Assembly (NCBI GenBank): GCA_947623995.1
Contig: CANQIN010000002.1
Coordinates: 1 to 51,336 of the forward strand
Origin: an uncultured Bacilli bacterium
GTDB taxonomy: Bacteria > Bacillota_I > Bacilli_A > RF39 > UBA660
Reading direction: 5' to 3'
DNA: 51,336 bases
The first letter of the stretch is position 1, and each line of letters opens with the position of its first letter. The position numbers and the translations under genes were made by a program. The notes under the pieces are model-generated. The model did no database searches, was not told where the DNA came from, and saw only the letters and a list, made by a program, of their open reading frames with translations. Positions 9,262 to 51,336 of this stretch are shown here, in pieces.

Positions 9262-10629
9262 TTAATTTTGAATTAATATAAACGGATTATCAATACTTCC
9301 ATATTCTAGTTCTGGATTAGGATTCGAACTTATTTTTACAGATGATTTTAAATAAACAACTGGTCTAATTTCATAAGCATTAAAAGCATTATACTGTGAA
9401 AAAAGCCCATCTCTTGCAAAACCCATAACTAAACCACCAGAATTTGCAGCTACATTTGGAGTAATACTCCATTCATATTTATTCAATAATATCCATATAT
9501 TATCATTACATCCATTTTTATCATATAAATACATTTCACTATTCAAACAATTATTTCTAATATTTCCACCACTTGCATAACCATAATCTGATGGATACAT
9601 TAAGCCAATTTTTCCAACCCACTCTGTAGTTCTATTAGTTGTATCATTACACAAATTACTATTTCCAGATTTAACACAAAAATCTTTCCCATTATTTTTA
9701 CTTCTTTCATAATCATACAAATAATATGGAAAAGTTATACTAGAAGTCCACTCTAAAGGTATTGTACCAGTATTCCATTTAATATTTGCTATCATACCTC
9801 TTACACTATTATCAATACCAACATTATCCCAAACAGGACATTCTTTAACATTATTATTAATGCCACTATAACATATTCCCCCACGATTTTCTTTATATAA
9901 ATAATCATTATTCAACACTTTTTGAATATCAGATTCACTCCATTCATTAACACCTTTACCATTATTTATATCAGGTGCACTACTATCCCAACTATAATTA
10001 CCCAAACTATCATTTTTAACAATTTTTAAATAACTTCCCATATTTTCAACTTTACTATCATCTTCACTTACTTCAATAATATTATTCATAATACCTAAAA
10101 CTCTCCATAATTCATTATTAAATTTAATATAATTATTAGGACCTACACCTATATATCTTAAATTATTATCTTTAGTACCTAATTTTTCTCCTAACACTTC
10201 TTTACCATCATAAGCTAAATTTACCTTATCAGTTTCACTTAATTTAGATATATAACAAAGTATACTATCACTACCATATTTATCACATAATTCTATTGAT
10301 TCTTTTTTTCTGAAATATAAACTACATTTTGTTTTACTTTTACTTAAATTCTTTACTAATGGTGCCCATTCTTCTTCATGCCAAATGATAGTTGCTCCAT
10401 TGTCACATTCTCCCCTACTAAATATTAAATCTTCAGAATTATCTTTCAAGGGCATTGCATTTAATTTCTCTTTTCCATTATAAAAAGCAAAATATACATC
10501 ATTATTATTAAAATTAAAATTTGTCTTAAAAAGTAAAAAAGAAACTCCTAACAATATAATAATACTTGCACCTATTACTATTAATTTTCTACTATTTATA
10601 TTTTTACTTAAAAAATTTTTCAACTTCAT
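9262..10629 (-). CDS. Paralog family member, class-I N-module with type-c C-module
   Basis: N-terminal basic stretch plus TM helix. The N-module is YFAFYNGKEKLNAMP..GECDNGATIIWHEEEWAPLVKNLSKSKTKCSLYF. C-module motifs are NNLRYIG, NNELWRVLGIMNN, GLMYPSDYGYA, RPVVYLKS and a DNPFILIQN tail. Confidence 0.85.
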   Translation of the reverse strand: MKLKNFLSKNINSRKLIVIGASIIILLGVSFLLFKTNFNFNNNDVYFAFYNGKEKLNAMPLKDNSEDLIFSRGECDNGATIIWHEEEWAPLVKNLSKSKTKCSLYFRKKESIELCDKYGSDSILCYISKLSETDKVNLAYDGKEVLGEKLGTKDNNLRYIGVGPNNYIKFNNELWRVLGIMNNIIEVSEDDSKVENMGSYLKIVKNDSLGNYSWDSSAPDINNGKGVNEWSESDIQKVLNNDYLYKENRGGICYSGINNNVKECPVWDNVGIDNSVRGMIANIKWNTGTIPLEWTSSITFPYYLYDYERSKNNGKDFCVKSGNSNLCNDTTNRTTEWVGKIGLMYPSDYGYASGGNIRNNCLNSEMYLYDKNGCNDNIWILLNKYEWSITPNVAANSGGLVMGFARDGLFSQYNAFNAYEIRPVVYLKSSVKISSNPNPELEYGSIDNPFILIQN

Positions 10630-10652
10630 AAAATCACCTATTCTATGAAGTA

Positions 10653-10685
10653 ATTATAACTCTTAAACCCCCCCCCCTGTGTCAA
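10653..10685 (-). promoter_or_regulatory. Switch promoter P1: TTGACA-CA-G10-TTTAAGAGT-TATAAT (21-nt spacer)
   Basis: -35 at 10685-10680; plus-strand C10 at 10668-10677; -10 at 10658-10653. A conserved leader AGAATAGGTGATTTT precedes the ATG at 10629. Confidence 0.7.
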
Positions 10686-10693
10686 CTATTTTC

Positions 10694-10722
10694 TTGCATT
10701 TTTTTATTATTTTTGCTATGAT
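10694..10722 (+). promoter_or_regulatory. Divergent plus-strand promoter (candidate sRNA promoter)
   Basis: TTGCAT (10694-10699), 17 nt, TGc-TATGAT (10717-10722, extended -10). It lies 8 bp from the -35 of P1. Confidence 0.6.
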
Positions 10723-10728
10723 GTATAT

Positions 10729-11248: not shown

Positions 11249-12619
11249 CTACCGTGCAATGAACGGTGTTCCTTTTTCACCATTTCCATCTATAATTTTT
11301 GTAGAAGATTTTAGATATACAACAGGCAAAATATCACCATAATCACCTTCTCCAGCTGAGCAGCTACCGATACCAAAATCCATACTCACACAAAACACAG
11401 TATTACCATAATCTGCTGCTGGAGTAATTGTAAATGCATCATAGCCTAGCATTAACCAATCATTTGTGTTACAACTATCACTAACATATGAAACCATACT
11501 TTTTCCTAAACATATTTCTCTTACTTCTCTTCCTACAGCATATCCGTAGTCACTAGGATAAATTAAGCCTATATATCCATCCCATGTTGTTGTTCTTTCT
11601 ACTTCATCATTACAATATCTATTATTACTCTCACATTGTTCCTTACCATTATGAGTACTTCTTTCTCCCTCATACATATATTTTGCTGATATTTTGCTAC
11701 TATAATATTTTTCACCTATCGTTCCCGTATTCCATCTTACTTTAGCTATCTTTTTCTTTGCTTCTTCACTTATTCCACTACTTGTAAAATCACATGGCTT
11801 ATAACTACTGTTATTTTTATAACAATATCCATTTTCCCTATTCCAATACAAACTTCTTCCTATTTCTGGGATTCCACTATATATATCTTGAGGATTTAAT
11901 AATTTCATTATATCTGCTTGACTCCATTCATTTACTCCCTGACCATAATTTATTTCTGATTCACTAATATCCCAACTAAAATAACCTATACTTCCTGTTC
12001 TTATTATTTTTAATAAGCTTTCTTGTTGTCCGCCATTATCTAAATTAGTTATATTATTCATGACTCCTATTATTCGCCATAATATTGGATTACCATCACC
12101 ATCACTATCTCCTATATCTATATAATTATTTACATCTGCATCTGCTCCTACATATCTTAGATTTGCATCATTTGTATCATCAACCCATAAATTTGTTGTA
12201 TCTGTTTTAGCTAAATCAATAATATAATCAGCAGCATTTGGCTCATATTCTTTAAAATATAAGCTACATTTGGTTTTACTTTTACTTAAGTTCTTTACTA
12301 TTGGTCCCCATGTTTCACTATCCCATATTATACTGGCTCCATTATCACATTCACCATGGTCAAATACTAAATTTTCTTCATTACCTTTCTGAGGCATTTC
12401 ATCTAATTCTTCATCACCTTTATAAAACGCAAAATAAATATCACTGTTACCAAAATAATCTACTTTTCCCTTCATCATTGGAAACTCTGCACTTTCTGTA
12501 AAAGATGCGAATGTTTTGTATAGAATTAATGATACACTTATTAAGACTATTACACTTATAGTTATTAGTATTGTTCTTCTTCTTTTTTCATTTTTATCAA
12601 CATACTTTTCTAGCTTCAT
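11249..12619 (-). CDS. Paralog family member, class-I N-module with type-a C-module
   Basis: N-terminus MKLEKYVDKNEKRRRTILITISVIVLISVSLILYKTFASFTESAEFPMMKGKVDYF. N-module ..GECDNGASIIWDSETWGPIVKNLSKSKTKCSLYF. C-module motifs NNYIDIGDSDGDGNPILWRIIGVMNN, NGKEQCE, YCNDEVERTTTWDGYIGLIYPSDYGYA and PVVYLKS. Confidence 0.85.
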   Translation of the reverse strand: MKLEKYVDKNEKRRRTILITISVIVLISVSLILYKTFASFTESAEFPMMKGKVDYFGNSDIYFAFYKGDEELDEMPQKGNEENLVFDHGECDNGASIIWDSETWGPIVKNLSKSKTKCSLYFKEYEPNAADYIIDLAKTDTTNLWVDDTNDANLRYVGADADVNNYIDIGDSDGDGNPILWRIIGVMNNITNLDNGGQQESLLKIIRTGSIGYFSWDISESEINYGQGVNEWSQADIMKLLNPQDIYSGIPEIGRSLYWNRENGYCYKNNSSYKPCDFTSSGISEEAKKKIAKVRWNTGTIGEKYYSSKISAKYMYEGERSTHNGKEQCESNNRYCNDEVERTTTWDGYIGLIYPSDYGYAVGREVREICLGKSMVSYVSDSCNTNDWLMLGYDAFTITPAADYGNTVFCVSMDFGIGSCSAGEGDYGDILPVVYLKSSTKIIDGNGEKGTPFIAR

Positions 12620-12642: not shown

Positions 12643-12674
12643 ATTATAACCCTTAACCCCCCCCCCTATGTCAA
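12643..12674 (-). promoter_or_regulatory. Switch promoter P2: TTGACA-TA-G10-TTAAGGGT-TATAAT (20-nt spacer)
   Basis: -35 at 12674-12669; plus-strand C10 at 12657-12666; -10 at 12648-12643. Leader AGAATAGAGTGATAAA precedes the ATG at 12619. Confidence 0.7.
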
Positions 12675-12682
12675 CTATTTTC

Positions 12683-14943: not shown

Positions 14944-14974
14944 CACTCATCACTCCTTTAGTATACTAAAAAAG

Positions 14975-18963: not shown

Positions 18964-18973
18964 ACTACCACCT

Positions 18974-19903: not shown

Positions 19904-21622
19904 TTAAAAAGCCAAAACAAGTCGAAAACTATCCCATTTTGCTAAACTGCCATATGCTTCATAAGAACGGAATATACCAGAACCAATGCCATCAGTGAAA
20001 TGGCCACCACGTCTAACCCATGGTCCAGCCGAATAGACAATCCAAGCCTCATCGTCATACCAACTGCCTACATATCTTGACTGTGTTAAATACTTCATAC
20101 TTTGGAACGGGCCCATTTCTTTTGTTGCATCTCCTAAAAAGCTTCGATTATATGATGTATTGCTTGTACTATAAGCGTATTTATCATAATATCTTTCATC
20201 GGTTGGTAAGGCAATTCCTTCTGTTACTTCTGAAATATTGTGATTTATTTCTACTCCACTATCATTACATTCTGGACATGTTAATTTTCCTATAAATCCT
20301 GAATTATATGCATTATGCCGTCCTGATGATAATTTTCCAGTATGACCATCTCCTGTTGAATTGTCATCCATTCCAGCCATCATAGTTTCCCAAGATCCTC
20401 CACTCATGTCATATATTCCACTGTAATTTCCAGTTGTACTTGCTACCACACTTGCTTTATTAAAATAATTGGTGTTATACTCACCATCAGCTCCAGGTGA
20501 TGATACACCTCCATATTCATTGCAAGCATCAGGTGTATTACTACATAACTCATTTGTTCCTGTATATCCTGTAGTTGGTTCACGTATTGCAGCATAACCT
20601 GTTAAATAATTGGAATTATTATTGATTCTTACACTTTCATGACTTCCATACACACTATGTTGTAAATAGGCTACGGCTCCCCATTCACTATTTTTCATCA
20701 TATGACTTTTTAAAGACTCTTCATAATGTAATCCCACTATGTATGCTTTTGCTACTTGAATACTTCTCCATGAATATACATTTGGTTTAATTATGACTTT
20801 ATTTGCTGCTTCTATAGAAGCTGCTTCATCACTAGGATTTATCTCTGCAACTTGTGTTCTTTCTGCTCCATCATATCCAGTTTCAAATTTTCCTACCCAT
20901 ATTCCATTGGTATTAAATGATGTGAAGGCTGGATGGGTTAACCATTCACCTTGTTTACTTCCATTTTGTACTTCTTCATCTTTTGTTTCAAATATCACAT
21001 TAATTATTTGTTCTTTATTTGTTTTCGTTGTTAATCCATTATAATTTCCTTCATCAAATATTTGATATCGATATCTGGGGATCCATACAAAATAACTTTC
21101 AATATCTCTTTCTTCTATTGGTTCATTTTCTCCTGGGTCTTCTACACCACTTCTTAATATGACTGCATTTGCCCACTTTTGAGCTCTATAATCATACCAC
21201 TTTTCTTTTTCACTTGCTCTTGTTACTAGTCCATTTTCTTCATTTATTACTATTGGTATTAATTTACTACTTAATTCTGGATCTGCTCCATTTAATTCTC
21301 TATCTATATATTTATTATTAAAATATAAAGTACACTTAGTTTTATTTTTTCTTAAATTCTTTATTAATGGAGCCCATTCTTCACTATTCCATTCAATACT
21401 TGCTCCATTATCACATTCTCCATCTATATAAACTAATCCTTCACTATTTTCTTTACTTGGCATTTCACTTATTTTTTCTTTTCCTTTATAAAAGGCTATA
21501 TCTATATTTTCATTACTATTTTCATTTATTAATAATTTTTCATAGTTTGTAAATGTTAATATATTTAATCCACTTATTAATATCACAATAATTATTAACA
21601 TTATATTTAATTTTTTCTTCAT
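19904..21622 (-). CDS. Paralog family member, class-I N-module fused to an unrelated FGE-sulfatase/SUMF1-like C-domain (type d)
   Basis: N-module IAFYKGKEKISEMP..GECDNGASIEWNSEEWAPLIKNLRKNKTKCTLYF. The C-terminal part has HPAF..GIWVGKFE, GIYDMSGGSWE, RRGGHF and a FRLVLAF end, and lacks the NLRYIG/PSDYGYA motifs. Confidence 0.8.
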   Translation of the reverse strand: MKKKLNIMLIIIVILISGLNILTFTNYEKLLINENSNENIDIAFYKGKEKISEMPSKENSEGLVYIDGECDNGASIEWNSEEWAPLIKNLRKNKTKCTLYFNNKYIDRELNGADPELSSKLIPIVINEENGLVTRASEKEKWYDYRAQKWANAVILRSGVEDPGENEPIEERDIESYFVWIPRYRYQIFDEGNYNGLTTKTNKEQIINVIFETKDEEVQNGSKQGEWLTHPAFTSFNTNGIWVGKFETGYDGAERTQVAEINPSDEAASIEAANKVIIKPNVYSWRSIQVAKAYIVGLHYEESLKSHMMKNSEWGAVAYLQHSVYGSHESVRINNNSNYLTGYAAIREPTTGYTGTNELCSNTPDACNEYGGVSSPGADGEYNTNYFNKASVVASTTGNYSGIYDMSGGSWETMMAGMDDNSTGDGHTGKLSSGRHNAYNSGFIGKLTCPECNDSGVEINHNISEVTEGIALPTDERYYDKYAYSTSNTSYNRSFLGDATKEMGPFQSMKYLTQSRYVGSWYDDEAWIVYSAGPWVRRGGHFTDGIGSGIFRSYEAYGSLAKWDSFRLVLAF

Positions 21623-21649: not shown

Positions 21650-21681
21650 ATTATAACCCATAACCCCCCCCCCTGTGTCAA
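21650..21681 (-). promoter_or_regulatory. Switch promoter P3: TTGACA-CA-G10-TTATGGGT-TATAAT (20-nt spacer)
   Basis: -35 at 21681-21676; plus-strand C10 at 21664-21673; -10 at 21655-21650. The ATG is at 21622. Confidence 0.7.
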
Positions 21682-21785: not shown

Positions 21786-23363
21786 TTATTCTATCATAAA
21801 TGGATTATCGATACTTCCATATTTCAAATCATTATTCGGATTTTCTAATATTTTAATATTTGATTTTAAATAGGCTACAGGTTTAATATTTCCAAAAGTA
21901 TCAACGCCTCCACTTGTAGCATATCCCTCAGCTGAAACAAAAAATGCAGTATGAGAATATTCTGTTAATGGAGCTGGATTAATAGTCCAAACATTAGTAT
22001 TAGAGCTAAGCCAATCATTTAAATTACAATTTTCTGTATTATAGGTATTTATACTTTTTATTAAACAATTTGTTCTTACATTTCCTCCTACCGCATAGCC
22101 ATAATCCGATGGATGTATTAAACCTATATATCCATCCCATGTTGTTTTTCTTTCTACTTCATCATTGCAATATATTCCACCTGTATTTTCACATTGTTCT
22201 TTACCATTATGATTACTTCGTTCACTTTCATACATGTATTGAGCTGTTATTTTATTTGAATAATCTATTTCACCAACTGTTCCAGTATACCATCTTACTT
22301 TTGCTATCTTACTCTTTACTTCTTCACTTAGCCCACTATTTGTAAATTCACATGGTATATTTAATTCGCTATATGCATTATAACAATATCCTTTTCCTCT
22401 TGTCCAATATAAACTTGCTCCGATTTCTGGTGTTCCACTATATACATCTTGAGGATTTAATAATTTCATTACATCAGCTTGACTCCATTCATTTACTCCC
22501 CAACCATTATTTATATTTGGTGCACTACTATCCCAGCTATAATCTCCTATATTATCTGCTCTTATTATTTTTACTAAACTTTCTTGCTTTTCAATATCAT
22601 CTAAACTTGTGATATTATTCATAACACCAATTACTCGCCATAATATTGGATTACCATCACCATCTCTATCTCCTATATCTATATAGTTATTTGGTTCTGC
22701 TCCAATATATCTTAAATTATTATCTTTGGTATTATCATATGATAAATTTGTTTCTTCGGTTTTGGCTATTTCTTCTATATAATCACTTGCTACTTGTTCA
22801 CCTATTTTTCCTTCAACCACTATTTTTGATTTTGCTATTTCATTTTCTATTCCACTTTCTTTTGTTACTTCTTCTTTTATCCATAATCTTAACTCATAGT
22901 TTACACTTTCTAATTTTCTTAATCTTCCTTCTGTTAATTGACGACTTTCTTTTGCTTCACTTATTTTTGGTATTTCATTTTCAGGATATTTACTTAATAT
23001 TTTAGGTTCTGTTTCTGTTTCTTCTTTATTTAATAATACTTTTATATTTTCACTATTTAATGTTGTTTCATTTAACATTTCTAAATTTATACTATAATCT
23101 ACATAATTTTCACATTCATTACGGATTGTAAATTTATATGGCTCTAGAATTTTTCCTTCTACATCTGTTTTTGGAAATGTATTTGTTAAACTTATGTTAT
23201 CTTCTTTATTTGTTAATTCTATATCTAAACAACTTGTACTTAAGATATTTTCATTTGTTTGTTCTTTTGTTATTACCCATAAAGCATAACTTACTCCTAT
23301 AGTTATTATTATTAACATTATTACCACTAATCCTATATATAATTTCTTTTTATTTTTGGCCAT
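21786..23363 (-). CDS. Paralog family member, class-II (TasA/camelysin-like) N-module with type-a C-module
   Basis: AAGGAGAA SD lies before the ATG at 23363 (MAKNKKKLYIGLVV..). The sequence continues SYALWVITKEQTNENILSTSCLDIELTN..FTIRNECENYVDYS. The C-module closely parallels 11249-12619 (KIAKVRWYTGT, NGKEQCE, YCNDEVERKTTWDGYIGLIHPSDYGYA). Confidence 0.85.
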   Translation of the reverse strand: MAKNKKKLYIGLVVIMLIIITIGVSYALWVITKEQTNENILSTSCLDIELTNKEDNISLTNTFPKTDVEGKILEPYKFTIRNECENYVDYSINLEMLNETTLNSENIKVLLNKEETETEPKILSKYPENEIPKISEAKESRQLTEGRLRKLESVNYELRLWIKEEVTKESGIENEIAKSKIVVEGKIGEQVASDYIEEIAKTEETNLSYDNTKDNNLRYIGAEPNNYIDIGDRDGDGNPILWRVIGVMNNITSLDDIEKQESLVKIIRADNIGDYSWDSSAPNINNGWGVNEWSQADVMKLLNPQDVYSGTPEIGASLYWTRGKGYCYNAYSELNIPCEFTNSGLSEEVKSKIAKVRWYTGTVGEIDYSNKITAQYMYESERSNHNGKEQCENTGGIYCNDEVERKTTWDGYIGLIHPSDYGYAVGGNVRTNCLIKSINTYNTENCNLNDWLSSNTNVWTINPAPLTEYSHTAFFVSAEGYATSGGVDTFGNIKPVAYLKSNIKILENPNNDLKYGSIDNPFMIE

Positions 23364-23403
23364 AACACATTCTCCTTGTATAACTATTATTTTTATTATC
23401 AAT

Positions 23404-25598: not shown

Positions 25599-26945
25599 TC
25601 AAAATGTTAATCGAAAAGGATTATCTATTGAACCGTAATTATCACTTTCATCTGATTCAATATAGACTTTATTATTTAAATATACAGTTGGTAAAATATT
25701 TGCTTCCTGATTTACATCACCCCAATAAATACCACTCATAGTAGAACTTATAGCAGTTTTATTAGAATTATCAAAATGAGTAGTTAAAAACCAATGACTA
25801 TCAGTATACAACCAATTAATATTTTCAATTGTATAACATGTACTATCAAAATCTAGTAATTTTTTTTCTAAGCAAGTTTCTCTATCATTTGCAACTGCAT
25901 AGCCATAATCTGATGGATAAATTAACCCAACTCCATTATGATATTTTGAATCATTTTCTCTGGTCCATACACTTGGATAGCCACTTTCTTTTACTGAAAC
26001 ACTTCTTTCTTTTTCATACATCGTTGGTGCATTATATATATCATTTGGTTCACCCAAATTCCATATAACATCTTTATCAATCATCAGCCTTGCTTCTTCA
26101 TTTAATCCTTTTGAATTTATATTATCTTGAGTAAAATCACATTCTGTTGGAATAGGATTATTTACATCTTGATAGCAATCACCAATCTCACTATTATAAT
26201 ATATGCCATTTAACATATCTTTTAAAGTTGAAGTTGTCCAATCATTATTATATGTAGATTTATAATCCCAACTATAATATCCTAAATCATCCATAAAGTG
26301 AAAATCTTCATTTTCATCAGTCCAAAATACATTTGAAATTCTTGTTAATTTTACTCTTTGTTCTATTCCACTATCAGTTTGAACGTTTACGAGTCCAATA
26401 ATTCTCCATATTTCATCATTAAATGCTATATAATTATTAGGATCTTCTCCAGCATATCGATATTCTATTTTATTCCAGCCACTATCTATTTCAGTAACAC
26501 TATGATCTACTTTATACAATCCATCACCAGTCTCTACAATAGGAATATCTCTATTTAATTGAAAACCAGTTTGTTCTTTAAAATATAAGCTACACTTTGT
26601 CTTTACTTTTTTTAATCCTTTTACTAATGGGGCCCATTCATTGTTGTTCCATTCAATACTTGCTCCATTATCACATTCACCATGGTCAAATACTAAATTA
26701 TCTGGATTATCTTTTACTGGCATCGTATCTAACTGTTCATCACCTTTATAGAATGCAAAATAAATATCGCTATTACCAAAATAATCAACTTTTCCTTTCA
26801 TCATTGGAAATTCTGCACTTTCCGTAAAACTTGCAAAGGTTTTATATAGAAGTAATGAGACACTTATTAAGACTATTACACTTATACTTATCAATATTGT
26901 TTTTCTTCTTTTCTTACTTTTATCTTCATATTTTTTTAGCTTCAT
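25599..26945 (-). CDS. Paralog family member, class-I N-module with type-b C-module
   Basis: N-terminus ..YKTFASFTESAEFPMMKGKVDYFGNSDIYFAFYKGDEQLDTMP..GECDNGASIEWNNNEWAPLVKGLKKVKTKCSLYF. C-module motifs EYRYAGEDPNNYIAFNDEIWRIIGLVNV, LKDMLNGIYYNSEIGDCY, GLIYPSDYGYA, PTVYL and DNPFRLTF. Confidence 0.85.
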   Translation of the reverse strand: MKLKKYEDKSKKRRKTILISISVIVLISVSLLLYKTFASFTESAEFPMMKGKVDYFGNSDIYFAFYKGDEQLDTMPVKDNPDNLVFDHGECDNGASIEWNNNEWAPLVKGLKKVKTKCSLYFKEQTGFQLNRDIPIVETGDGLYKVDHSVTEIDSGWNKIEYRYAGEDPNNYIAFNDEIWRIIGLVNVQTDSGIEQRVKLTRISNVFWTDENEDFHFMDDLGYYSWDYKSTYNNDWTTSTLKDMLNGIYYNSEIGDCYQDVNNPIPTECDFTQDNINSKGLNEEARLMIDKDVIWNLGEPNDIYNAPTMYEKERSVSVKESGYPSVWTRENDSKYHNGVGLIYPSDYGYAVANDRETCLEKKLLDFDSTCYTIENINWLYTDSHWFLTTHFDNSNKTAISSTMSGIYWGDVNQEANILPTVYLNNKVYIESDESDNYGSIDNPFRLTF

Positions 26946-26967: not shown

Positions 26968-26998
26968 ATTATAGCATTTACCCCCCCCCCTATGTCAA
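26968..26998 (-). promoter_or_regulatory. Switch promoter P4: TTGACA-TA-G10-TAAATGC-TATAAT (19-nt spacer)
   Basis: -35 at 26998-26993; plus-strand C10 at 26981-26990; -10 at 26973-26968. The ATG is at 26945. Confidence 0.7.
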
Positions 26999-33038: not shown

Positions 33039-33071
33039 ATTATAAACTTTAAAACCCCCCCCCCATGTCAA
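33039..33071 (-). promoter_or_regulatory. Switch promoter P5: TTGACA-T-G10-TTTTAAAGTT-TATAAT (21-nt spacer)
   Basis: -35 at 33071-33066; plus-strand C10 at 33055-33064; -10 at 33044-33039. The ATG is at 33015. Confidence 0.7.
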
Positions 33072-34620: not shown

Positions 34621-34652
34621 ATTATAAACCTATACCCCCCCCCCTATGTCAA
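34621..34652 (-). promoter_or_regulatory. Switch promoter P6: TTGACA-TA-G10-TATAGGTT-TATAAT (20-nt spacer)
   Basis: -35 at 34652-34647; plus-strand C10 at 34635-34644; -10 at 34626-34621. The ATG is at 34597. Confidence 0.7.
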
Positions 34653-36371: not shown

Positions 36372-37955
36372 TTATCCTAAAATAAAAGGATTATCTATAC
36401 TTCCATATTCTTTTTCAGGATTGGGATTTTCTAATATTTTAACAGTTGATTTTAAATAAGCTACTGGTTTAACATCATAACCATTTAAAGCTCCATGCGT
36501 AATTATCCGTGTTTCATATAGATGATATACATCTAGTGCCGAGTTGTTTAATGGTGTAAGGGTCCAATTATATTCAGAAGTTATTCGTAACCAATTATTG
36601 TTATTGCAATCCTCATCATATGCATCCAAATTTTTTTGAAGACAGTTATTTCTTGCTTCTCCTCCTACCGCATAACCAAAATCTGAGGGATACAGCAAAG
36701 CAATATATCCATCCCATGCTGTAGTTCTTTCTACTTCATCATTGCAAAACGTTCCATATTCACATTGCTTACTTTTATTTTTACTTCTCTCACCATTATA
36801 CATGTAATCAGCAGTCTTATTTCCATTAGGTGTACCAAGGTTCCATTTAACTTTTGATATAAGAGTTTTTGCCTTATCACTCAACCCACTATTAGTAAAA
36901 TCACATTTTTTATTTTCATTATTTATCCAAAAAAAACATTCTCCATCTTTTTGATTCCAAAATAAACTATTATTAGCTTTAATTTCTTCACCAACATTAT
37001 TTGTTTCCATATTATCGTCATATCCAGGATTTAATAATTTCATTAAGTCTGCTTGGCTCCATTCATTTATTCCATATCCATAGTTTATTGTTTGTATGCT
37101 ACTATCCCAGCTATAGATTCCAATACTATCTGCTCTTATTATTTTTACTAAACTTTCTTGCTTTTCAATATCATCTAAACTTGTGATGTTATTCATAACA
37201 CCGATTACTCGCCATAATATTGGTTGTCCTTCACCATCTCTATCTCCTATATCTATATAGTTATTTGGCTCTGCTCCAATATATCTTAAATTATTATCTT
37301 TGGTATTATCATATGCTAAATTTGTTTCTTCGGTTTTGGCTATTTCTTCTATATAATCACTTGCTACTTGTTCACCTATTTTTCCTTCAACCACTATTTT
37401 TGATTTTGCTATTTCATTTTCTATTCCACTTTCTTTTGTTACTTCTTCTTTTATCCATAATCTTAACTCATAGTTTACACTTTCTAATTTTCTTAATCTT
37501 CCTTCTGTTAATTGACGACTTTCTTTTGCTTCACTTATTTTTGGTATTTCATTTTCAGGATATTTACTTAATATTTTAGGTTCTGTTTCTGTTTCTTCTT
37601 TATTTAATAATACTTTTATATTTTCACTATTTAATGTTGTTTCATTTAACATTTCTAAATTTATACTATAATCTACATAATTTTCACATTCATTACGGAT
37701 TGTAAATTTATATGGCTCTAGAATTTTTCCTTCTACATCTGTTTTTGGAAATGTATTTGTTAAACTTATGTTATCTTCTTTATTTGTTAATTCTATATCT
37801 AAACAACTTGTACTTAAGATATTTTCATTTGTTTGTTCTTTTGTTATTACCCACAAAGCATAACTTACTCCTATGGTTATTAATAGTAATACTATTAATA
37901 CAATAGTTATTATTTTAATTTTATTTTTTGGTTTTTCATAACTTTCTAAATTCAC
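36372..37955 (-). CDS. Paralog family member, class-II N-module with type-a-derived C-module
   Basis: Residues ~30-300 are near-identical to 21786-23363 (SYALWVITKEQTNEN... through ..LVKIIRAD), after which the sequences diverge. A GTG start at 37955 or 37964 follows a class-I type GAGTGAT leader. Confidence 0.8.
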   Translation of the reverse strand: MNLESYEKPKNKIKIITIVLIVLLLITIGVSYALWVITKEQTNENILSTSCLDIELTNKEDNISLTNTFPKTDVEGKILEPYKFTIRNECENYVDYSINLEMLNETTLNSENIKVLLNKEETETEPKILSKYPENEIPKISEAKESRQLTEGRLRKLESVNYELRLWIKEEVTKESGIENEIAKSKIVVEGKIGEQVASDYIEEIAKTEETNLAYDNTKDNNLRYIGAEPNNYIDIGDRDGEGQPILWRVIGVMNNITSLDDIEKQESLVKIIRADSIGIYSWDSSIQTINYGYGINEWSQADLMKLLNPGYDDNMETNNVGEEIKANNSLFWNQKDGECFFWINNENKKCDFTNSGLSDKAKTLISKVKWNLGTPNGNKTADYMYNGERSKNKSKQCEYGTFCNDEVERTTAWDGYIALLYPSDFGYAVGGEARNNCLQKNLDAYDEDCNNNNWLRITSEYNWTLTPLNNSALDVYHLYETRIITHGALNGYDVKPVAYLKSTVKILENPNPEKEYGSIDNPFILG

Positions 37956-37981
37956 TATTATCACTCAATTCTATAATTTAT

Positions 37982-42866: not shown

Positions 42867-44426
42867 TTAAGATAAAGTAAAGGGATTATCTGTTGTTCCG
42901 TTACCATTAGTTATTTTAACATTTGATTTTAAATATAAAACTGGCTTCACTGATAACTGCGATATTGGGGGAGTAACATAACTTACACATCCATCATAAT
43001 TTACAAACATAGTCCCATCGGTCAATCTAGGATTAATTGTCCATTGTGTTATTCCCTTTTCGTATAACCAATCATTTTCAACACATTCCAAAGAAATTTC
43101 TTCAGACCAAGATCTTAAATTCCTATTTAAGCAAGTATCTCTTTTTACATTACTTCCTCCGCTAGTAGCAAAACCATAATCGCTAACATACATTAAACCT
43201 ATTTTTCCAATCCAATTCATGTTATTTTTATGTTCATTTTCATAAAAATAATTAGGAATAAATCCTCCACCACCAAGTGAACTATTTGTATATATAACAT
43301 TACTTATATATGCTTTAGCATCTAAATTTAAACCAGTATCTTTAAAATCGCAAACTATCGTTTCGCCATTTGTTGGACATTCGCCTTTAATTTTTTCCCA
43401 GTATGCTCCATTATTTAAAATTTGTTGTAAATCAGAAAAATTCCAATCATTTCTGGAATTATTATCCCAACTAAAATTACCTATTGAATCCTTTCTAATA
43501 ATTTTCATATGGCTTCCAACTGTTTGGGATTTACTTTCATCTTCACTTACTTCGGTTACATTATTCATAACTCCGATGATTTGCCATAATATTGGATTCC
43601 CTTCACTATCTCTATCACCTATATCTATATAATTATTTGGATTAGACCCAATATATCTTAAATTGTTATCATCGGTTCCTAATTCTTCTCCTAAACTTTC
43701 TTTTCCATCATATGCTAAGTTTATTGTATCTAAATTTGCATTTTCTTTCATACAGGTTACTGCATCTTTTCCTTCTGCTCCACACTTTGCTACTGCACTT
43801 CCATATACTTCTCCTATATCATTACTTTCTGTTGCTGCATTTATTACATTGATACTTGCTTCAAATGTTTGTCCTTCTACTTCATTTCCAGCAATGTCAT
43901 CTATCCATAAATATAAATTGTAGGTTACTTCTTCTCCATTATTTACTACTCCATCAACTTTTGTTCCTCCACTTAATACTCCTGTGTCTAATATATATGA
44001 TGTCCCTAAATTCTCTACCATTAAATTTTCTAAATCAGTATTTATTCTACTTAATTTACTTCCAACATTTGGTTTTTCTTCACTACTTTTATATAAAGCA
44101 TATTTTATTTTACTTGCATCTAAGGTATTTGTACTTAATGTATTTAATGTTAAGACATAATTATTATTAATAGTACAGGTATTTGTTATGGTAAATGTAT
44201 AAGGATTTGTACTTAATCCTATACTATCATTTACTGGATACGTATTATCTAATTTTATACTTTCACTTTGCTCACTAAATCCTATACTAAAACATCCTAC
44301 ATCCATCTCATTTTCATTTGTTTGTTCTTCGGTTATTATCCACAAAGCATATGATTGGGTTATATATAAACATCCCACTAACATTAATCCTATTATTAAT
44401 AATGATAATTTATATCTTACTTTCAT
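42867..44426 (-). CDS. Paralog family member, class-II (group 2) N-module with a hybrid type-a/c C-module
   Basis: MKVRYKLSLLIIGLMLVGCLYITQSYALWIITEEQTNENEMDVGCFSIGF... The first ~275 aa are near-identical to the 46740, 48574 and 50386 copies. C-module motifs NNYIDIGDRDSEGNPILWQIIGVMNN, GLMYVSDYGFA, PVLYLKS and DNPFTLS. Confidence 0.85.
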   Translation of the reverse strand: MKVRYKLSLLIIGLMLVGCLYITQSYALWIITEEQTNENEMDVGCFSIGFSEQSESIKLDNTYPVNDSIGLSTNPYTFTITNTCTINNNYVLTLNTLSTNTLDASKIKYALYKSSEEKPNVGSKLSRINTDLENLMVENLGTSYILDTGVLSGGTKVDGVVNNGEEVTYNLYLWIDDIAGNEVEGQTFEASINVINAATESNDIGEVYGSAVAKCGAEGKDAVTCMKENANLDTINLAYDGKESLGEELGTDDNNLRYIGSNPNNYIDIGDRDSEGNPILWQIIGVMNNVTEVSEDESKSQTVGSHMKIIRKDSIGNFSWDNNSRNDWNFSDLQQILNNGAYWEKIKGECPTNGETIVCDFKDTGLNLDAKAYISNVIYTNSSLGGGGFIPNYFYENEHKNNMNWIGKIGLMYVSDYGFATSGGSNVKRDTCLNRNLRSWSEEISLECVENDWLYEKGITQWTINPRLTDGTMFVNYDGCVSYVTPPISQLSVKPVLYLKSNVKITNGNGTTDNPFTLS

Positions 44427-44687
44427 TTTTACCAATCCCTATTCTTAAGTTATTTAAAGTATATCAAATTTCTAACGAAAAGTCTTTATATTTTATAAAG
44501 TTATTGGTAAAATCTTGTTATTATAATTTTTTTAAAATAGTAAAAAAGCATAAAAACTATAATATTTAGTTATTTCTTTAAAACTAAATTTATAAAAAGA
44601 AATTTAAAAAGATTGTACATAATATAAATAAGAAATAGATTAAACAATTGACATAATAAACTTTTTTTCGTTTTTTAAATATTTATA

Positions 44688-44879
44688 AAGACAAAATAAA
44701 TATCACTATTACTAAAATAATCTACTTTGCCATTCATCATTGGAAATGAAACATTCTCAGAAAAGGAAGCAAAGGTTTTATAAAGTAAAAAAGAAACTTA
44801 TTAACACAATTACACTTATGCTTATTAATATTATTTTTCTTCTTTTACTTTCTTTATCAACATACTTTTCTAGTTTCAT
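44688..44879 (-). pseudogene. 5' remnant of a class-I paralog (frameshifted, truncated after ~60 codons)
   Basis: It translates from 44879 as MKLEKYVDKESKRRKIILISISVIVLISFFFTL*. A shifted frame continues ..FPMMNGKVDYFSNSDIYFVF, then homology ends near 44688. Confidence 0.7.
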
Positions 44880-44901
44880 TATAATCATCCATTCTACTAT
44901 G

Positions 44902-44932
44902 ATTATAGCTCTTGACCTATCCTCCATGTCAA
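44902..44932 (-). promoter_or_regulatory. Switch-promoter homolog with a degenerated tract (TTGACA-TGGAGGATAGG..-TATAAT, 19-nt spacer)
   Basis: -35 at 44932-44927 and -10 at 44907-44902. The position of the G10 is occupied by GGAGGATAGG. The upstream flank matches P5. Confidence 0.5.
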
Positions 44933-45112
44933 GTTTGAAAATATTATTTTAAACCACTTGCTATATTTGTAATTTATGCAATATACTTTAAAATATCATG
45001 TAATCTAATTTTAATTTACTTACTGATACTTTTTAATAACACTTAATTTATATGTCTACTTTCAAAAAGGGCAAACTCAAAGTTAAGATAATAGTTTTGT
45101 ATTTATTTACCC

Positions 45113-45967: not shown

Positions 45968-46023
45968 TTTTATTCACCTTCTAAAATTGACTAAATAATT
46001 TCTATGAGAAAAGGAGTAAATTT

Positions 46024-46739: not shown

Positions 46740-48365
46740 TTAAGATTCTAAGATAAATGGATTATCTATTGTTCCATTTCCATTTATTATTTTAACATTT
46801 GATTTTAAATATAAGGTAGGCCAAACTCCAAAAGCATAATCTATACTTCCTGTATGGCTTACATATCCAGAAGAAAAAATGTTGTATGATCTTCCAGAAT
46901 GAGAAGAATTTGAGGTCAAAAGCCACTGATAATCTTTATTTGGTTTTAGCCAATCATTTAAGGAACAACTTTCAGTATAATAGTCATATATATTCAAGTT
47001 TAAACAAGTTTTTCTGACATTACCACCAACGGCATAGCCGTAATCTGAAGGATATATTAGACCAATACCATTGTGATAATTAGAATCATTTTCTTTAGTC
47101 CATTCGTTTGGATATTCTTGATTATAAACAGCTGTTCCACGTTCATTAATGTATATATTTTTGGAATTTATCCCAACACTATTATAACCTCCCAAACTCC
47201 AGATTATTTCATTATCTATCATTTCTCTAAAGTTTAAATCTATGCCTTTTGGCAAATCTGTTTCAGATCCGCTAAAATTACATGTGTTTTTATTTCCAAT
47301 TTCATTTTGAGCAGTATAACAATCTCCAATTCCGCTTTCATAATATATACCATTTAACATATTTTTTAAACTCGATTTTACCCAATTATTTTCAATAACT
47401 TCTTTTCCATAATCCCAACTGTAATTTCCAAAATCTTTTTGACCAGCTATTCCATCTTGTCTTATTATTTTTAAATGACTACCAGTTATTTCACTTCCAT
47501 CTTCTTGTTCGCTTCTTAAATTGTTCATGACTCCAATAATCCGCCATTTTTCTCCATTAAATGATACATAATTATTTGGATTAGACCCAATATATCTTAA
47601 ATTATTATCATCGGTTCCTAATTCTTCTCCTAAACTTTCTTTTCCATCATAGGCTAAATTTATTGTATCTAAATTTGCATTTTCTTTCATACATGTTACA
47701 GCATCTTTTCCTTCTGCTCCACACTTTGCTACTGCACTTCCATATACTTCTCCTATATCATTACTTTCTGTTGCTGCATTTATTACATTGATACTTGCTT
47801 CAAATGTTTGTCCTTCTACTTCATTTCCAGCAATGTCATCTATCCATAAATATAAATTGTAGGTTACTTCTTCTCCATTATTTACTACTCCATCAACTTT
47901 TGTTCCTCCACTTAATACTCCTGTGTCTAATATATATGATGTCCCTAAATTCTCTACCATTAAATTTTCTAAATCAGTATTTATTCTACTTAATTTACTT
48001 CCAACATTTGGTTTTTCTTCACTACTTTTATATAAAGCATATTTTATTTTACTTGCATCTAAGGTATTTGTACTTAATGTATTTAATGTTAAGACATAAT
48101 TATTATTAATAGTACAGGTATTTGTTATGGTAAATGTATAAGGATTTGTACTTAATCCTATACTATCATTTACTGGATACGTATTATCTAATTTTATACT
48201 TTCACTTTGCTCACTAAATCCTATACTAAAACATCCTACATCCATCTCATTTTCATTTGTTTGTTCTTCGGTTATTATCCACAAAGCATATGATTGGGTT
48301 ATATATAAACATCCCACTAACATTAATCCAATTATTAATAATGATAATTTATATCTTACTTTCAT
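46740..48365 (-). CDS. Paralog family member, class-II (group 2) N-module with type-b C-module
   Basis: ATG at 48365 (MKVRYKL..). The N-terminal ~275 aa are shared with the other group-2 copies. C-module motifs NNYVSFNGEKWRIIGVMNN, LKNMLNGIYYESGIGDCY, GLIYPSDYGYAVGG, WPTLYLKS and DNPFILES. Confidence 0.85.
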   Translation of the reverse strand: MKVRYKLSLLIIGLMLVGCLYITQSYALWIITEEQTNENEMDVGCFSIGFSEQSESIKLDNTYPVNDSIGLSTNPYTFTITNTCTINNNYVLTLNTLSTNTLDASKIKYALYKSSEEKPNVGSKLSRINTDLENLMVENLGTSYILDTGVLSGGTKVDGVVNNGEEVTYNLYLWIDDIAGNEVEGQTFEASINVINAATESNDIGEVYGSAVAKCGAEGKDAVTCMKENANLDTINLAYDGKESLGEELGTDDNNLRYIGSNPNNYVSFNGEKWRIIGVMNNLRSEQEDGSEITGSHLKIIRQDGIAGQKDFGNYSWDYGKEVIENNWVKSSLKNMLNGIYYESGIGDCYTAQNEIGNKNTCNFSGSETDLPKGIDLNFREMIDNEIIWSLGGYNSVGINSKNIYINERGTAVYNQEYPNEWTKENDSNYHNGIGLIYPSDYGYAVGGNVRKTCLNLNIYDYYTESCSLNDWLKPNKDYQWLLTSNSSHSGRSYNIFSSGYVSHTGSIDYAFGVWPTLYLKSNVKIINGNGTIDNPFILES

Positions 48366-48395
48366 ATTACCAATCCCTATTCTTAAGTTATTTAA

Positions 48396-48424
48396 AGTAT
48401 ACAATAATTTAACATTTTTAGCAA
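48396..48424 (-). promoter_or_regulatory. Tract-free promoter of 46740-48365
   Basis: TTGCTA (48424-48419), 17 nt, TATACT (48401-48396). Confidence 0.55.
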
Positions 48425-48552: not shown

Positions 48553-48578
48553 AAAAAAAACTTAACAATTAAGTTAAG
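48553..48578 (-). terminator. AT-rich intrinsic terminator overlapping the stop codon of 48574-50178
   Basis: Minus strand CTTAAC-TTAATT-GTTAAG followed by T8. Confidence 0.5.
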
Positions 48579-50178
48579 CTTCTAAGATAAATGGATTATC
48601 CTCTGTTCCATTTCCATTTATTATTTTTATATTATTAATAAGATAAACTACAGGTGCTACTGAACCAGAATCTATATGAGATGTAGCATAACCCATTACA
48701 CCATTATCTCCTGGAGCCAATATCCTATTTACTTTATTTTCATTTGGAATAGATGCTGTTATAGTCCAATACCAACTACTTGATGGTTTTAACCAATCAT
48801 CATAACCGCATTTTTCAGTATAGTACAAACTCATATAATTATTTATGCATAAATTTCTCATACTTTTACCAACGGCATAACCATAATCTGATGGATACAT
48901 TAAACCAATTCCATTGTAAAATTCATTGTCTATCTCTTTAGACCATTCACTTTTATTTTGATTATTATTTCCTGTTTGAATTCCTCGTTCCTTTTTATAA
49001 ATTTCAGCTGGTACAACATCAGTTGTGTCGACGCCTCCAACATTCCATACTAAATTTGTATCTATCATGCTTCTTGAATTACTGTTTATACCTTTTACTA
49101 GCCCACTTTCTTGTGTAAAATCGCAAGTTGTAGGTTCACTAATACTTGTGGTATAACATTCACCGCTTGTACTATTATAATATATTCCATTTAACATATC
49201 TTTTAATGCGGATATTGTCCAATCATTTGATGATTTATTATCCCAATAGTATTTTTCTAAATTTTCTTGGCCAGAAATTCCATTAGTTCTAATTATTTTC
49301 AAACGTTCTACTTTTTCTCCATTTTCATTTTTTACTTTCATGACTCCAATAATCCGCCATTTTTCTCCATTAAATAATACATAATTATTTGGATTTGCAC
49401 CAATATATCTTAAATTATTATCATCGGTTCCTAATTCTTCTCCTAAACTTTCTTTTCCATCATATGCTAGGTTTATTGTATCTAAATTTGCATTTTCTTT
49501 CATACAGGTTACGGCATCTTTTCCTTCTGCTCCACACTTTGCTACTGCATTTCCATATACTTCTCCTATATCATTACTTTCTGTTGCTGCATTTATTACA
49601 TTAATACTTGCTTCAAATGTTTGGCCTTCTACTTCATTTCCAGCAATGTCATCTATCCATAAATATAAATTGTAGGTTACTTCTTCTCCATTATTTACTA
49701 CTCCATCAACTTTTGTTCCTCCACTTAATACTCCTGTGTCTAATATATATGATGTCCCTAAATTCTCTACCATTAAATTTTCTAAATCAGTATTTATTCT
49801 ACTTAATTTACTTCCAACATTTGGTTTTTCTTCACTACTTTTATATAAAGCATATTTTATTTTACTTGCATCTAAGGTATTTGTACTTAATGTATTTAAT
49901 GTTAAGACATAATTATTATTAATAGTACAGGTATTTGTTATGGTAAATGTATAAGGATTTGTACTTAATCCTATACTATCATTTACTGGATACGTATTAT
50001 CTAATTTTATACTTTCACTTTGCTCACTAAATCCTATACTAAAACATCCTACATCCATCTCATTTTCATTTGTTTGTTCTTCGGTTATTATCCACAAAGC
50101 ATATGATTGGGTTATATATAAACATCCCACTAACATTAATCCAATTATTAATAATGATAATTTATATCTTACTTTCAT
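48574..50178 (-). CDS. Paralog family member, class-II (group 2) N-module with a type-b variant C-module
   Basis: Same N-terminal half. C-module motifs NNYVLFNGEKWRIIGVMKV, LKDMLNGIYYNSTSGECY, GLMYPSDYGYAVG, PVVYL and DNPFILEA. Confidence 0.85.
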   Translation of the reverse strand: MKVRYKLSLLIIGLMLVGCLYITQSYALWIITEEQTNENEMDVGCFSIGFSEQSESIKLDNTYPVNDSIGLSTNPYTFTITNTCTINNNYVLTLNTLSTNTLDASKIKYALYKSSEEKPNVGSKLSRINTDLENLMVENLGTSYILDTGVLSGGTKVDGVVNNGEEVTYNLYLWIDDIAGNEVEGQTFEASINVINAATESNDIGEVYGNAVAKCGAEGKDAVTCMKENANLDTINLAYDGKESLGEELGTDDNNLRYIGANPNNYVLFNGEKWRIIGVMKVKNENGEKVERLKIIRTNGISGQENLEKYYWDNKSSNDWTISALKDMLNGIYYNSTSGECYTTSISEPTTCDFTQESGLVKGINSNSRSMIDTNLVWNVGGVDTTDVVPAEIYKKERGIQTGNNNQNKSEWSKEIDNEFYNGIGLMYPSDYGYAVGKSMRNLCINNYMSLYYTEKCGYDDWLKPSSSWYWTITASIPNENKVNRILAPGDNGVMGYATSHIDSGSVAPVVYLINNIKIINGNGTEDNPFILEA

Positions 50179-50208
50179 ATTACCAATCCCTATTCTTAAG
50201 TTATTTAA

Positions 50209-50237
50209 AGTATACAATAATTTAACATTTTTAGCAA
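50209..50237 (-). promoter_or_regulatory. Tract-free promoter of 48574-50178
   Basis: TTGCTA (50237-50232), 17 nt, TATACT (50214-50209). It is identical to 48396-48424. Confidence 0.55.
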
Positions 50238-50365
50238 ATATATTAGTAGTAATTTTAGTAACTCCCTATAAAAATTTTATGTTTAAATCAAAGTAGAAAA
50301 AACTAGAAAAACAAATACAGAAATTAGTAATTTAATTTAGCTATAATTAATTCTCTTTTAGCATG

Positions 50366-50390
50366 AAAAAAACTTAACAATTAAGTTAAG
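50366..50390 (-). terminator. AT-rich intrinsic terminator overlapping the stop codon of the 50386 copy
   Basis: Minus strand CTTAAC-TTAATT-GTTAAG followed by T7. Confidence 0.5.
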
Positions 50391-51336
50391 CTTCTAAGAT
50401 AAATGGATTATCCTCTGTTCCATTTCCATTTATTATTTTAACATTTGATTTTAAATATAAAACTGGTTTAATTGAATATGCTGCAAGGTCTGAATCAATT
50501 GTTGAAACTGTTCCATCATTTTTTATTCGCCAAACTACATAATTATAATATGTTTGCGGTGTCATAGTAAATTGCTGATATTCTAGTGGTGCAAGATAAT
50601 TGCTATCTTTACAATCTGTATTATTCAATTTATCAGTATCTGTTTTTAAGCAAATACTTCTAGAATAATTATTAGTACCACTAGCAGCATAACCATAATC
50701 TGATGGATATATTAAGCCTATTTTACCAGTCCATTTTGATTCATAAGTATTGTCGTTACCAGTTAATCCTCCACGTTCATAATCATAGCATTGTTTAGTT
50801 GAAGTGGAATAATCTGAATAACCCCCAAGATTCCATGAAATATTAGCTATTAAATTTTTAGCTTCATCTTTTAAGGTATCGTTCCAGTATGTTCCACTAT
50901 TTAGTATATCTTTAAGAGTTGATTTTGAATAGTCATTAGTCTGATTTTCATCAAAAACATAATCACCTATTGTTTTAGCTGTTATTATTTTTAAATGGCT
51001 TCCTATGCTTTGTGTTTCACTTCCATCTTCACTTACTTCGGTTATATTATTCATAACCCCAATAATTCGCCATAGTTCATTATTAAATGATATATAATTA
51101 TTTGGATTAGACCCAATATATCTTAAATTATTATCATCGGTTCCTAATTCTTCTCCTAAGACTTCTTTTCCATCATATGCTAGGTTTATTGTATCTAAAT
51201 TTGCATTTTCTTTCATACATGTTACGGCATCTTTTCCTTCTGCTCCACATTTTGCTACAGCACTTCCATATACTTCTCCTATATCATTACTTTCTGTTGC
51301 TGCATTTATTACATTGATACTTGCTTCAAATGTTTG
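50386..51336 (-). CDS. Paralog family member, class-II (group 2), 5' end outside the window, type-c C-module
   Basis: The reading frame is open to the window edge (..QTFEASINVINAATESNDIGEVYGSAVAKCGAEGKDAVTCMKENANL..); the track's M at 51216 is internal. C-module motifs NNYISFNNELWRIIGVMNNITEVSEDGSE, GLIYPSDYGYA, PVLYLKS and DNPFILEA. Confidence 0.8.
   Translation of the reverse strand, partial: QTFEASINVINAATESNDIGEVYGSAVAKCGAEGKDAVTCMKENANLDTINLAYDGKEVLGEELGTDDNNLRYIGSNPNNYISFNNELWRIIGVMNNITEVSEDGSETQSIGSHLKIITAKTIGDYVFDENQTNDYSKSTLKDILNSGTYWNDTLKDEAKNLIANISWNLGGYSDYSTSTKQCYDYERGGLTGNDNTYESKWTGKIGLIYPSDYGYAASGTNNYSRSICLKTDTDKLNNTDCKDSNYLAPLEYQQFTMTPQTYYNYVVWRIKNDGTVSTIDSDLAAYSIKPVLYLKSNVKIINGNGTEDNPFILEA

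Follow-up and report, generated by a model that had tools for sequence, protein, structure and literature searches.

Poly-G promoter tracts and module exchange in a family of probable surface proteins with predicted lectin-like heads from uncultured gut Bacilli

Homopolymer tracts in the promoter region of surface genes, whose length sets the level of transcription, are known from the vlp family of Mycoplasma hyorhinis (poly-A in the promoter spacer) and from porA and opc of Neisseria (poly-G or poly-C spacers). The tpr genes of Treponema pallidum are a further case, with poly-G tracts in their promoters (PMC7864442). A second arrangement is that of contingency genes in Campylobacter jejuni and Helicobacter, where G tracts of ~8-13 nt in the 5′ coding sequence are reported to shift the frame of surface-related genes (PMC6321876, PMC2823697). 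Here we describe poly-G tracts at both kinds of position in a modular protein family, from a window of 51,336 nt (the whole stretch of DNA analysed: positions 1 to 51,336 of contig CANQIN010000002.1, assembly GCA_947623995.1, from an uncultured Bacilli bacterium of the RF39 lineage) and from related loci. The switching would be of a known kind, in a protein family that is new and a lineage that has been little studied. With moderate confidence we read it as a contingency-locus family: phase-variable, recombining genes for exported ligand-binding proteins with lectin-fold heads, probably located on the cell surface. What the analysis shows is the family, its modularity, the predicted fold, where the tracts lie and the frame states in relatives; the actual switching, the retention on the surface and the ligand are the parts that we infer.

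The likeness to tpr, vlp and porA/opc is the homopolymer in the promoter region of genes for probable surface proteins; the differences are an unrelated protein family, an uncultured gut Bacilli host, a tract whose place, promoter spacer or 5′ coding region, varies from gene to gene, and a system known from sequence alone. As in C. jejuni and Helicobacter, G tracts are concentrated in a small class of genes, but those hosts are Gram-negative epsilonproteobacteria with tracts over many unrelated families, whereas here nearly all belong to one modular family. With the DUF6273 domains of the Thomasclavelia ramosa immunoglobulin A (IgA) protease, of phage tentaclins and of the targets of diversity-generating retroelements (DGRs), the common head domain shares its predicted fold, weak sequence matches and a most variable stretch near the C-terminal end. 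It differs from them in falling below the Pfam threshold, in its extra conserved motifs YPSDYGYA and DNPF, and in being joined to an N-terminal helix and stalk instead of a protease or phage tail. The post-helix motif resembles that of TasA/camelysin and other SipW-dependent proteins, and one related genome has an archaeal-type signal peptidase (SPase); the family is set apart from those proteins by other domain content and the lack of any significant sequence or profile match.

RF39, RFN20 and ML615J-28 are uncultured Mycoplasma-related gut orders. Reduced surface-protein display has been inferred in RFN20 and ML615J-28 from sortase loss (PMC10868615). The family described here would be a major sortase-independent surface repertoire with thousands of members and many copies per genome, joining three known routes of variation (a lectin-fold head, modular recombination and homopolymer switching) in one system. 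Its members are candidate determinants of attachment to host or particles, IgA evasion and phage resistance in organisms not yet grown, and DUF6273, a Pfam domain best known from phage DGR targets, would gain a large divergent cellular branch.

Poly-G tracts in promoters and 5′ coding regions

The first-pass annotation of this DNA had described a family of twelve minus-strand genes and a remnant taking up about one third of the window. All twelve open reading frames (ORFs) were found at the coordinates it gave, with one frameshifted remnant, and sum to ~17.5 kb or 34% of the window. We name them by their left coordinate and sort them by N-module into class I and class II. A feature absent from that annotation changes how the family is read: all six class-I genes have, 35-40 nt upstream of the ATG, the sequence TTGACA, 1-2 nt, a pure run of ten G (G10), 7-10 nt, and TATAAT. 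Apart from these six tracts the 51-kb window has no G or C run of at least 6, and it is because one stands in every class-I promoter spacer that the reading shifts to a phase-variable contingency family.

The six promoters are on the minus strand like their genes. Three have a 20-nt spacer, namely those of 11249 (12643..12674, TTGACA-ta-G10-ttaagggt-TATAAT, poly-G 12657-12666), 19904 (21650..21681, TTGACA-ca-G10-ttatgggt-TATAAT, poly-G 21664-21673) and 33263 (34621..34652, TTGACA-ta-G10-tataggtt-TATAAT, poly-G 34635-34644). The spacer is 21 nt long for 9262 (10653..10685, TTGACA-ca-G10-tttaagagt-TATAAT, poly-G 10668-10677) and 31690 (33039..33071, TTGACA-t-G10-ttttaaagtt-TATAAT, poly-G 33055-33064), and 19 nt for 25599 (26968..26998, TTGACA-ta-G10-taaatgc-TATAAT, poly-G 26981-26990), where the -10 is TG-extended. 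The spacer sequence beside the tract has diverged between copies; the tract itself is pure in all six.

Two further loci have lost the tract. In the promoter of the class-I remnant (TTGACA-tGGaGGataGGtcaagagc-TATAAT) it has decayed to GGaGGataGG. Gene 36372, taken over 36372-38040, has a class-I-like upstream element (aaaagtggtttaaaat...), ribosome-binding region and first codons joined to a class-II body; its G tract is deleted, which leaves TTGACG-8 nt-TATAAT, and it may be a silenced or locked copy. The window class-II genes have no tracts and show ordinary-looking promoters (TTGCTA-17-TATACT, TTGCGA-17-TATAAT), from which they are probably expressed, although a generic promoter scan gave 92 matches against 68 expected, such matches being common in AT-rich DNA.

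For related genes we surveyed the window together with 84 related loci, 1.1 Mb in all. Runs of at least G7 numbered 60, against ~4 expected from composition (0.1 expected for at least G9). Forty-six of the 60 were just upstream of, or within, the 5′ end of a recognised family gene, and most others lay at contig ends, ahead of apparently truncated family genes or of genes with family-like N-termini. Every run adjoining a family gene was G on that gene's coding strand. Tracts were carried by 68% of evaluable class-I-type and 30% of class-II-type genes, at two positions: the promoter spacer, where lengths ranged from G7 to G13, or the first codons, which then code for Gly ahead of the helix or inside it.

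With one or two exceptions, the coding tracts examined were out of frame with a well-placed start codon, mostly by one base; to come into frame, most would need a change of -1, two of +1 and one of -2. Eleven G10 tracts would come into frame as G9, two G9 tracts as G8, one G9 tract as G10, and two G11 tracts as G10 or G12; one G9 tract, at locus L020, was in frame. Promoter tracts also varied, with G8 (17-nt spacer) and G11 (20-nt spacer) at two paralogous promoters in one metagenome-assembled genome (MAG), and G9 and G7 at other family genes in samples of the same study. Two marks of contingency genes are thus present: a long homopolymer in the promoter spacer or 5′ coding region, and differing lengths at homologous sites with in-frame as well as out-of-frame states.

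In the mechanism that we propose, slipped-strand mispairing of the poly-G tract would switch individual genes stochastically. The length of the tract would set the -35/-10 spacing of class-I promoters, and contraction from G10 would restore a spacer of ~17 nt; in relatives, first-codon tracts would switch the reading frame instead. Because G10 gives spacers of 19-21 nt, the majority genotype is predicted to leave the window class-I genes weak or OFF, and a mostly OFF consensus would be expected if each cell expresses few members. Such a system would probably serve to vary adhesion to ligands from the host, the diet or other microbes, or to evade IgA or phage.

Several points weigh against this reading. 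Gene 25599 has G10 in all four samples examined, and length polymorphism at a single locus was not seen; the class-II orthologue set compared for tract length had no tract. G10 is a strong mode and could be a functional fixed length, not a neutral OFF state. The ON and OFF spacer lengths come from the sigma-70 consensus only, and a TG-extended -10 may relax the -35 spacing. As to the heads, the window proteins themselves reach no Pfam threshold, and the polar motifs under strong conservation (YPSDYGYA, Y..ER) may belong to an active site and not to a scaffold.

The first of these points, with the dominance of G10 and the equal length of the six window tracts although their spacers differ, would also suit a conventionally regulated family in which the tracts have a fixed role in the promoter, regulatory or structural, or else an artefact of sequencing or assembly. 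We regard this as quite unlikely. The tracts occur in promoter spacers, first codons and helix-coding regions, which have mutability as their sole common property; their lengths span 7 to 13; and the tract is decayed in the pseudogene and deleted in the chimeric 36372. As for artefact, the coding tracts are off frame by -1, +1 or -2, and since the needed shift is not uniform in direction a systematic length error cannot explain them; moreover, tracts were found in independent Illumina assemblies of rabbit, human, chicken and other studies.

Two side observations concern the tract-bearing genes. A conserved element AAGTGGTTTAAAA(T/C)AAT lies ~10-15 nt upstream of the -35 of 19904, 33263, 36372 and the remnant (window sites ~21690-21710, 34660-34680, 38010-38030 and 44930-44950) and of orthologues at loci L084 and L089, and is a candidate UP element or binding site for a regulator. 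Genes at L023 (16738) and L063 (minus strand, 362 and 4460) have class-I-like N-termini (…KYQVEQSFPIMEG…) with G10 within the helix-coding region, and the downstream domain of the L023 gene was not matched by our four module hidden Markov models (HMMs). From these genes the tract-bearing superfamily appears to be wider than the four modules studied.

Module exchange and the predicted head fold

The C-module framework (LRY.G..NNY, WR.IG, YPSDYGYA, P..YL, DNPF), which the first-pass annotation had taken to be shared throughout, is found in 11 of the 12 genes; the C-module of 19904 is longer and unrelated to it. That annotation had also proposed that N- and C-modules are freely combined, and the identity matrices and a DNA breakpoint bear this out. 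The N-parts of 42867, 46740, 48574 and 50386 are 97-100% identical and their C-parts 39-51%. Across classes, the C-parts of class-I 11249 and class-II 21786 are 64% identical, and those of class-II 46740 and class-I 31690 and 33263 are 53-56% identical (33263: 56%). At the DNA level, tandem class-II genes are ~100% identical over ~1 kb of upstream sequence and the N-module; the drop to 50-60% comes exactly at the NNLRYIG motif, and identity rises again over the final ~120 nt. In sliding windows the C-modules are themselves mosaics, with partners that switch along the sequence. Of the discrete C-types proposed earlier, type c (9262/50386) is weak at 45% overall, and the C-modules are better described as mosaics than as clean types.

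HMMs of the four modules were run on the window and related loci, and among the 139 family ORFs all four N and C combinations were seen: the common C-module with the class-II N-module (78) or the class-I N-module (21), and the 19904-type C-module with the class-I (7) or class-II N-module (3). The identity matrices, the DNA breakpoints and these four architectures in relatives support one modular multigene family with recombined N- and C-modules. Because the repeated N-modules are identical, an assembly mis-join among them could alter gene order but not protein sequences, and two full-length proteins with repeated N-modules are each listed on several contigs. New N-C and intra-C combinations would arise as paralogues recombine at conserved motifs, chiefly at NNLRYIG, on the N/C boundary, and at the conserved 3′ end.

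In Pfam and NCBIfam scans of ten window members we saw noise only and no curated model naming the family; sequence and profile searches of PDB with family proteins likewise gave nothing significant. An AlphaFold (AF2) model of gene 46740, built with 90 homologues, has a predicted local distance difference test (pLDDT) score of 87. Along the chain it has a helix at the N-terminus (residues 3-36), a beta-sandwich (40-198), a helical hairpin with two Cys (204-232) and a C-terminal domain (237-541). Among PDB entries Foldseek ranked first 9qa6, the IgA peptidase of T. ramosa (E 2.7e-5, probability 1.0, 336 columns), the N-terminal domain of which is DUF6273 (PMC12402451). Many phage DUF6273 proteins match among viral models, with probability 0.99-1.0. 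DUF6273 is reported to be C-type-lectin-like and a DGR target in phage receptor-binding proteins (PMC10743442). None of ten window proteins reaches the Pfam gathering threshold for DUF6273 (PF19789), and 17 of 90 relatives have sub-threshold matches (best E 5.4e-4; for example P0056, 18.5 bits against a cutoff of 23.5). On its model, then, the common C-module of 11 of the 12 genes is DUF6273-like with a predicted C-type-lectin-like fold. The first-pass annotation had been unable to assign it and had proposed profile scans and structure prediction with Foldseek; the scans named no Pfam or NCBIfam family, and the fold search led to DUF6273.

FGE-sulfatase domains have a fold related to C-type lectins. 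The 19904 window protein has no Pfam match to FGE-sulfatase (PF03781), but 24 of 61 relatives have sub-threshold matches (best E 4.2e-4), and the module aligns with PvdO on a GiYDMsGGaWE motif (E 0.56). As the AF2 model of 19904 is poor (pLDDT 62.6) and a Foldseek search with it was empty, it is on the sub-threshold sequence matches that this C-module appears to be a divergent FGE-sulfatase-like domain. An hhalign comparison of the common and 19904-type C-module profiles (45% probability) suggests common ancestry of the two kinds.

The protein plan would accordingly read, in outline, as a basic N-terminus, one hydrophobic helix (signal or anchor), a near-invariant (S/T)(F/Y)A-x-(F/W/Y), a stalk and a head. 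The stalk would be a small two-Cys beta module in class I and a beta-sandwich of ~160 aa with a helical hairpin in class II; the head would have a C-type-lectin-like fold, DUF6273-like in 11 genes and FGE-sulfatase-like in 19904. The most variable C-module stretch lies between W.LTP and P..YLK. In DGR targets with this fold the variable region is at the corresponding C-terminal position, and by analogy with other such proteins the stretch may be the binding surface.

We also considered that the C-modules might be secreted enzymes acting on glycans, cell wall or proteins, the family being an expanded exoenzyme set. Several polar residues and motifs are strictly conserved (R, N, K, E-R, S-D-Y-G-Y), which would suit catalysis, the 19904-type domain resembles a family that includes enzymes, and the structural match falls within an IgA protease. 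However, what matches in that protease is the N-terminal DUF6273 domain, which is non-catalytic, and not its M64 peptidase domain (PMC12402451), and phage DUF6273 domains are receptor-binding heads and DGR targets (PMC10743442). Together with hypervariable loops on a conserved frame, which fit binding better than catalysis, and with no hydrolase family match in Pfam, NCBIfam or PDB, this makes an enzyme set highly unlikely.

Unlike DGR targets, the heads of this family are diversified by paralogy and recombination, not by a retroelement. A DGR was rejected for the window, as no reverse transcriptase (RT) was found among the ORFs scanned, no template-like repeat in the DNA and no template and variable repeat pair. 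At locus L069 (2914-3546, minus strand) a degraded RT fragment (YMDD, IGNYSSQ) lies ~0.8 kb downstream of a family gene; no such repeat pair was found there. A protein in BFVD (A0A8S5RFF4; 541 aa, 'virus sp. ctQmo6') matches the whole class-II model (552 columns, E 5e-8) and is either a phage-borne homologue or from a bacterial contig mislabelled as viral.

Probable export signals and comparison with TasA

The first-pass annotation had given class I a basic stretch, a transmembrane (TM) helix and a two-Cys module, and these were found in all six class-I genes. The motif TFASFTESAEF, which it placed in most copies, follows the helix as TFASFTES(A/E)EF in four of the six genes and in degraded form in the remnant, and is absent from 9262 and 19904. 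Its class-II N-terminus is likewise present (SYALW(V/I)IT(K/E)EQTNEN), followed by a module of ~160 aa where it had estimated ~170 aa. A shorter motif, (S/T)(F/Y)A-x-(F/W/Y), directly follows the helix almost universally in both classes across ~100 relatives, and the Cys pairs are invariant in every module. Because of the basic N-terminus with one TM helix and the conserved Cys pairs in each module, an extracytoplasmic location is likely, in keeping with the surface location first proposed.

No family member has a sortase sorting signal (LPXTG/NPQTN); all end in ...DNPF.L.. without a hydrophobic tail. As to a possible lipoprotein nature, a lipobox-like LVGC is found only in the 42867/46740/48574 type, and the other class-II type of the window, that of 21786 and 36372, has no Cys there. 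The helix may be either a cleaved signal or an anchor.

If it is cleaved, the family might consist of SipW-processed, TasA/camelysin-like matrix or fibre proteins: an archaeal-type peptidase would cut after (S/T)(F/Y)A, the new N-terminal strand would polymerise the N-module by donor-strand exchange, and the fibres would display the C-module heads. The TasA/CalY motif is T-x-A-x-F-(S/T/N)-D, and class I reads much the same after its helix (TFASFTE, in KTFASFTES); the post-helix motif itself is real and nearly universal in both classes. Distant class-II members read STFAMFT...KSGTLTIEF, akin to ATFASGTLDLS of TasA. Weak fold matches of the 46740 model include the TasA-like archaeal bundling pilin 7ueg (probability 0.90) and CanA. 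One related locus, L004, has two archaeal-type SPase I genes (TIGR02228, 85 and 75 bits, above the cutoff) 2.6-4.4 kb from a family gene. Family proteins also lack a C-terminal anchor, so that a cleaved protein would need other means of staying on the cell.

The direct tests went the other way. TIGR04088, the model of SipW-cognate signals, gave no match even at E up to 10 (TapA reached only E 0.13), and the resemblance of the class-II module to TasA/camelysin proposed in the first-pass annotation did not survive profile comparison: no Peptidase_M73 match was found among 90 relatives, and hhalign of the family profile with TasA gave 6% probability. The TM-score of the 46740 model to 7ueg is 0.34, and the class-I N-module is a 60-aa unit without resemblance to TasA. 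There is no sipW in the window and no conserved neighbour gene across ~90 loci, and S-Y-A and T-F-A are ordinary type-I signal peptidase sites as well. We therefore consider processing into TasA-like fibres unlikely, and the fuller version, with donor-strand surface fibres whose lectin-fold heads are picked combinatorially by poly-G phase variation and cassette-like recombination, rather improbable. Were the latter true, it would amount to a retroelement-free diversification of a repertoire of C-type-lectin-fold receptors in a mycoplasma-related gut lineage.

The L004 peptidase cluster (14251-17834) has its two SipW-class peptidases interleaved with four small secreted proteins that have (K/S)(T/L)(Y/A) after their signal helices, and two transposase-like genes lie between it and the family gene. 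The cluster may be a TasA-like fibre locus.

Gene inventory, host and relatives

All family genes are on the minus strand. Among class-I genes, 9262 (9262..10629) has the basic N-terminus, TM helix, two-Cys module and DUF6273-like C-module without the TFASFTE motif; 11249 (11249..12619) carries KTFASFTESAEF and has a C-module nearest to those of class-II 21786 and 36372; and 19904 (19904..21622) joins a class-I N-module to the longer FGE-sulfatase-like C-module. Gene 25599 (25599..26945) is flanked by murA and tuf, and an identical protein occurs in three other samples. The others are 31690 (31690..33015) and 33263 (33263..34597), with the remnant at 44690..44950, a frameshifted 5′ end with its ATG at 44879 that reaches down to ~44690.

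Class-II gene 21786 (21786..23402, probable ATG 23363) has no G tract and a candidate upstream promoter TTGCGA-17-TATAAT. Gene 36372 (36372..37964) is the one with the chimeric 5′ end, made up of a class-I-type upstream element and first codons (VNLESYEK, cf. MKLEKYVDK). The N-module and upstream DNA of 42867 (42867..44435, probable ATG 44426) are ~100% identical to those of 46740 (46740..48404, probable ATG 48365), whose protein P0001 was the one modelled (TM helix, beta-sandwich, helical hairpin and DUF6273-like head), and of 48574 (48574..50217, probable ATG 50178). Gene 50386 (50386..51336) passes the window end while still inside its N-module.

The window has ~25% G+C, and nearly all its genes are on the minus strand. 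It includes tuf, fusA, rpsG/rpsL, murA, genes for an HtrA-like protease and a cell-wall amidase and a thioredoxin-reductase-like gene, along with a sortase, an ISL3 transposase and a BceAB-like ABC system with a two-component system. From these features the window is chromosomal DNA of a low-GC Firmicute with a cell wall. We rejected a prophage origin of the family genes, which lie among tuf, fusA, rpsG/L, murA, htrA and the trxB-like gene, without phage genes nearby.

Among the loci seen, the family is confined to uncultured gut Bacilli. The closest relatives of the family genes are all in MAGs from the guts of rabbit, human (Hadza), chicken and others that carry the labels uncultured Bacilli, Tenericutes or Firmicutes; 'Mycoplasma sp. 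CAG:956' and 'Candidatus Ventrenecus' are among them. By word-indexed search, gene 46740 has at least 3,781 relatives and gene 19904 at least 7,093. A profile of the eleven common C-modules matched 7,051 clusters (50% identity), 2,004 of them with E below 1e-30, and in this search some proteins had several C-module copies. Cluster look-ups of relatives returned no protein name, a search for a conserved partner gene beside family genes at ~90 loci found none, and a literature search found no paper describing this family. P0248, P0249 and P0269 (2,274-5,708 aa) have two to seven C-module copies each; either they are genuine proteins with several heads, or tandem genes have been fused by read-through.

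Several neighbours in the window deserve mention. An intact ISL3-family transposase (DDE_Tnp_ISL3, E 9e-58) at 34824-36158 is inserted between two family genes, and just upstream of 19904, a class-I gene, are two adjacent genes without Pfam match (222 and 270 aa; 18295-19786). At 39186-40112 a gene for an Abi_2 (abortive-infection-like) protein (E 3e-41) adjoins the HtrA-like protease gene. At 4529-9133 is encoded a repetitive protein of 1,534 aa with a signal peptide and many repeats of ~65-70 aa, without Pfam match, which ends in NPQTV and a hydrophobic tail resembling a sortase-B-type sorting signal. At 45113-46674 the sortase gene (minus strand) is divergent from a gene for a secreted protein of 216 aa, the end of which has NPKTSD, a TM segment and KKA; the two are a probable sortase-B/substrate pair inside the class-II array.

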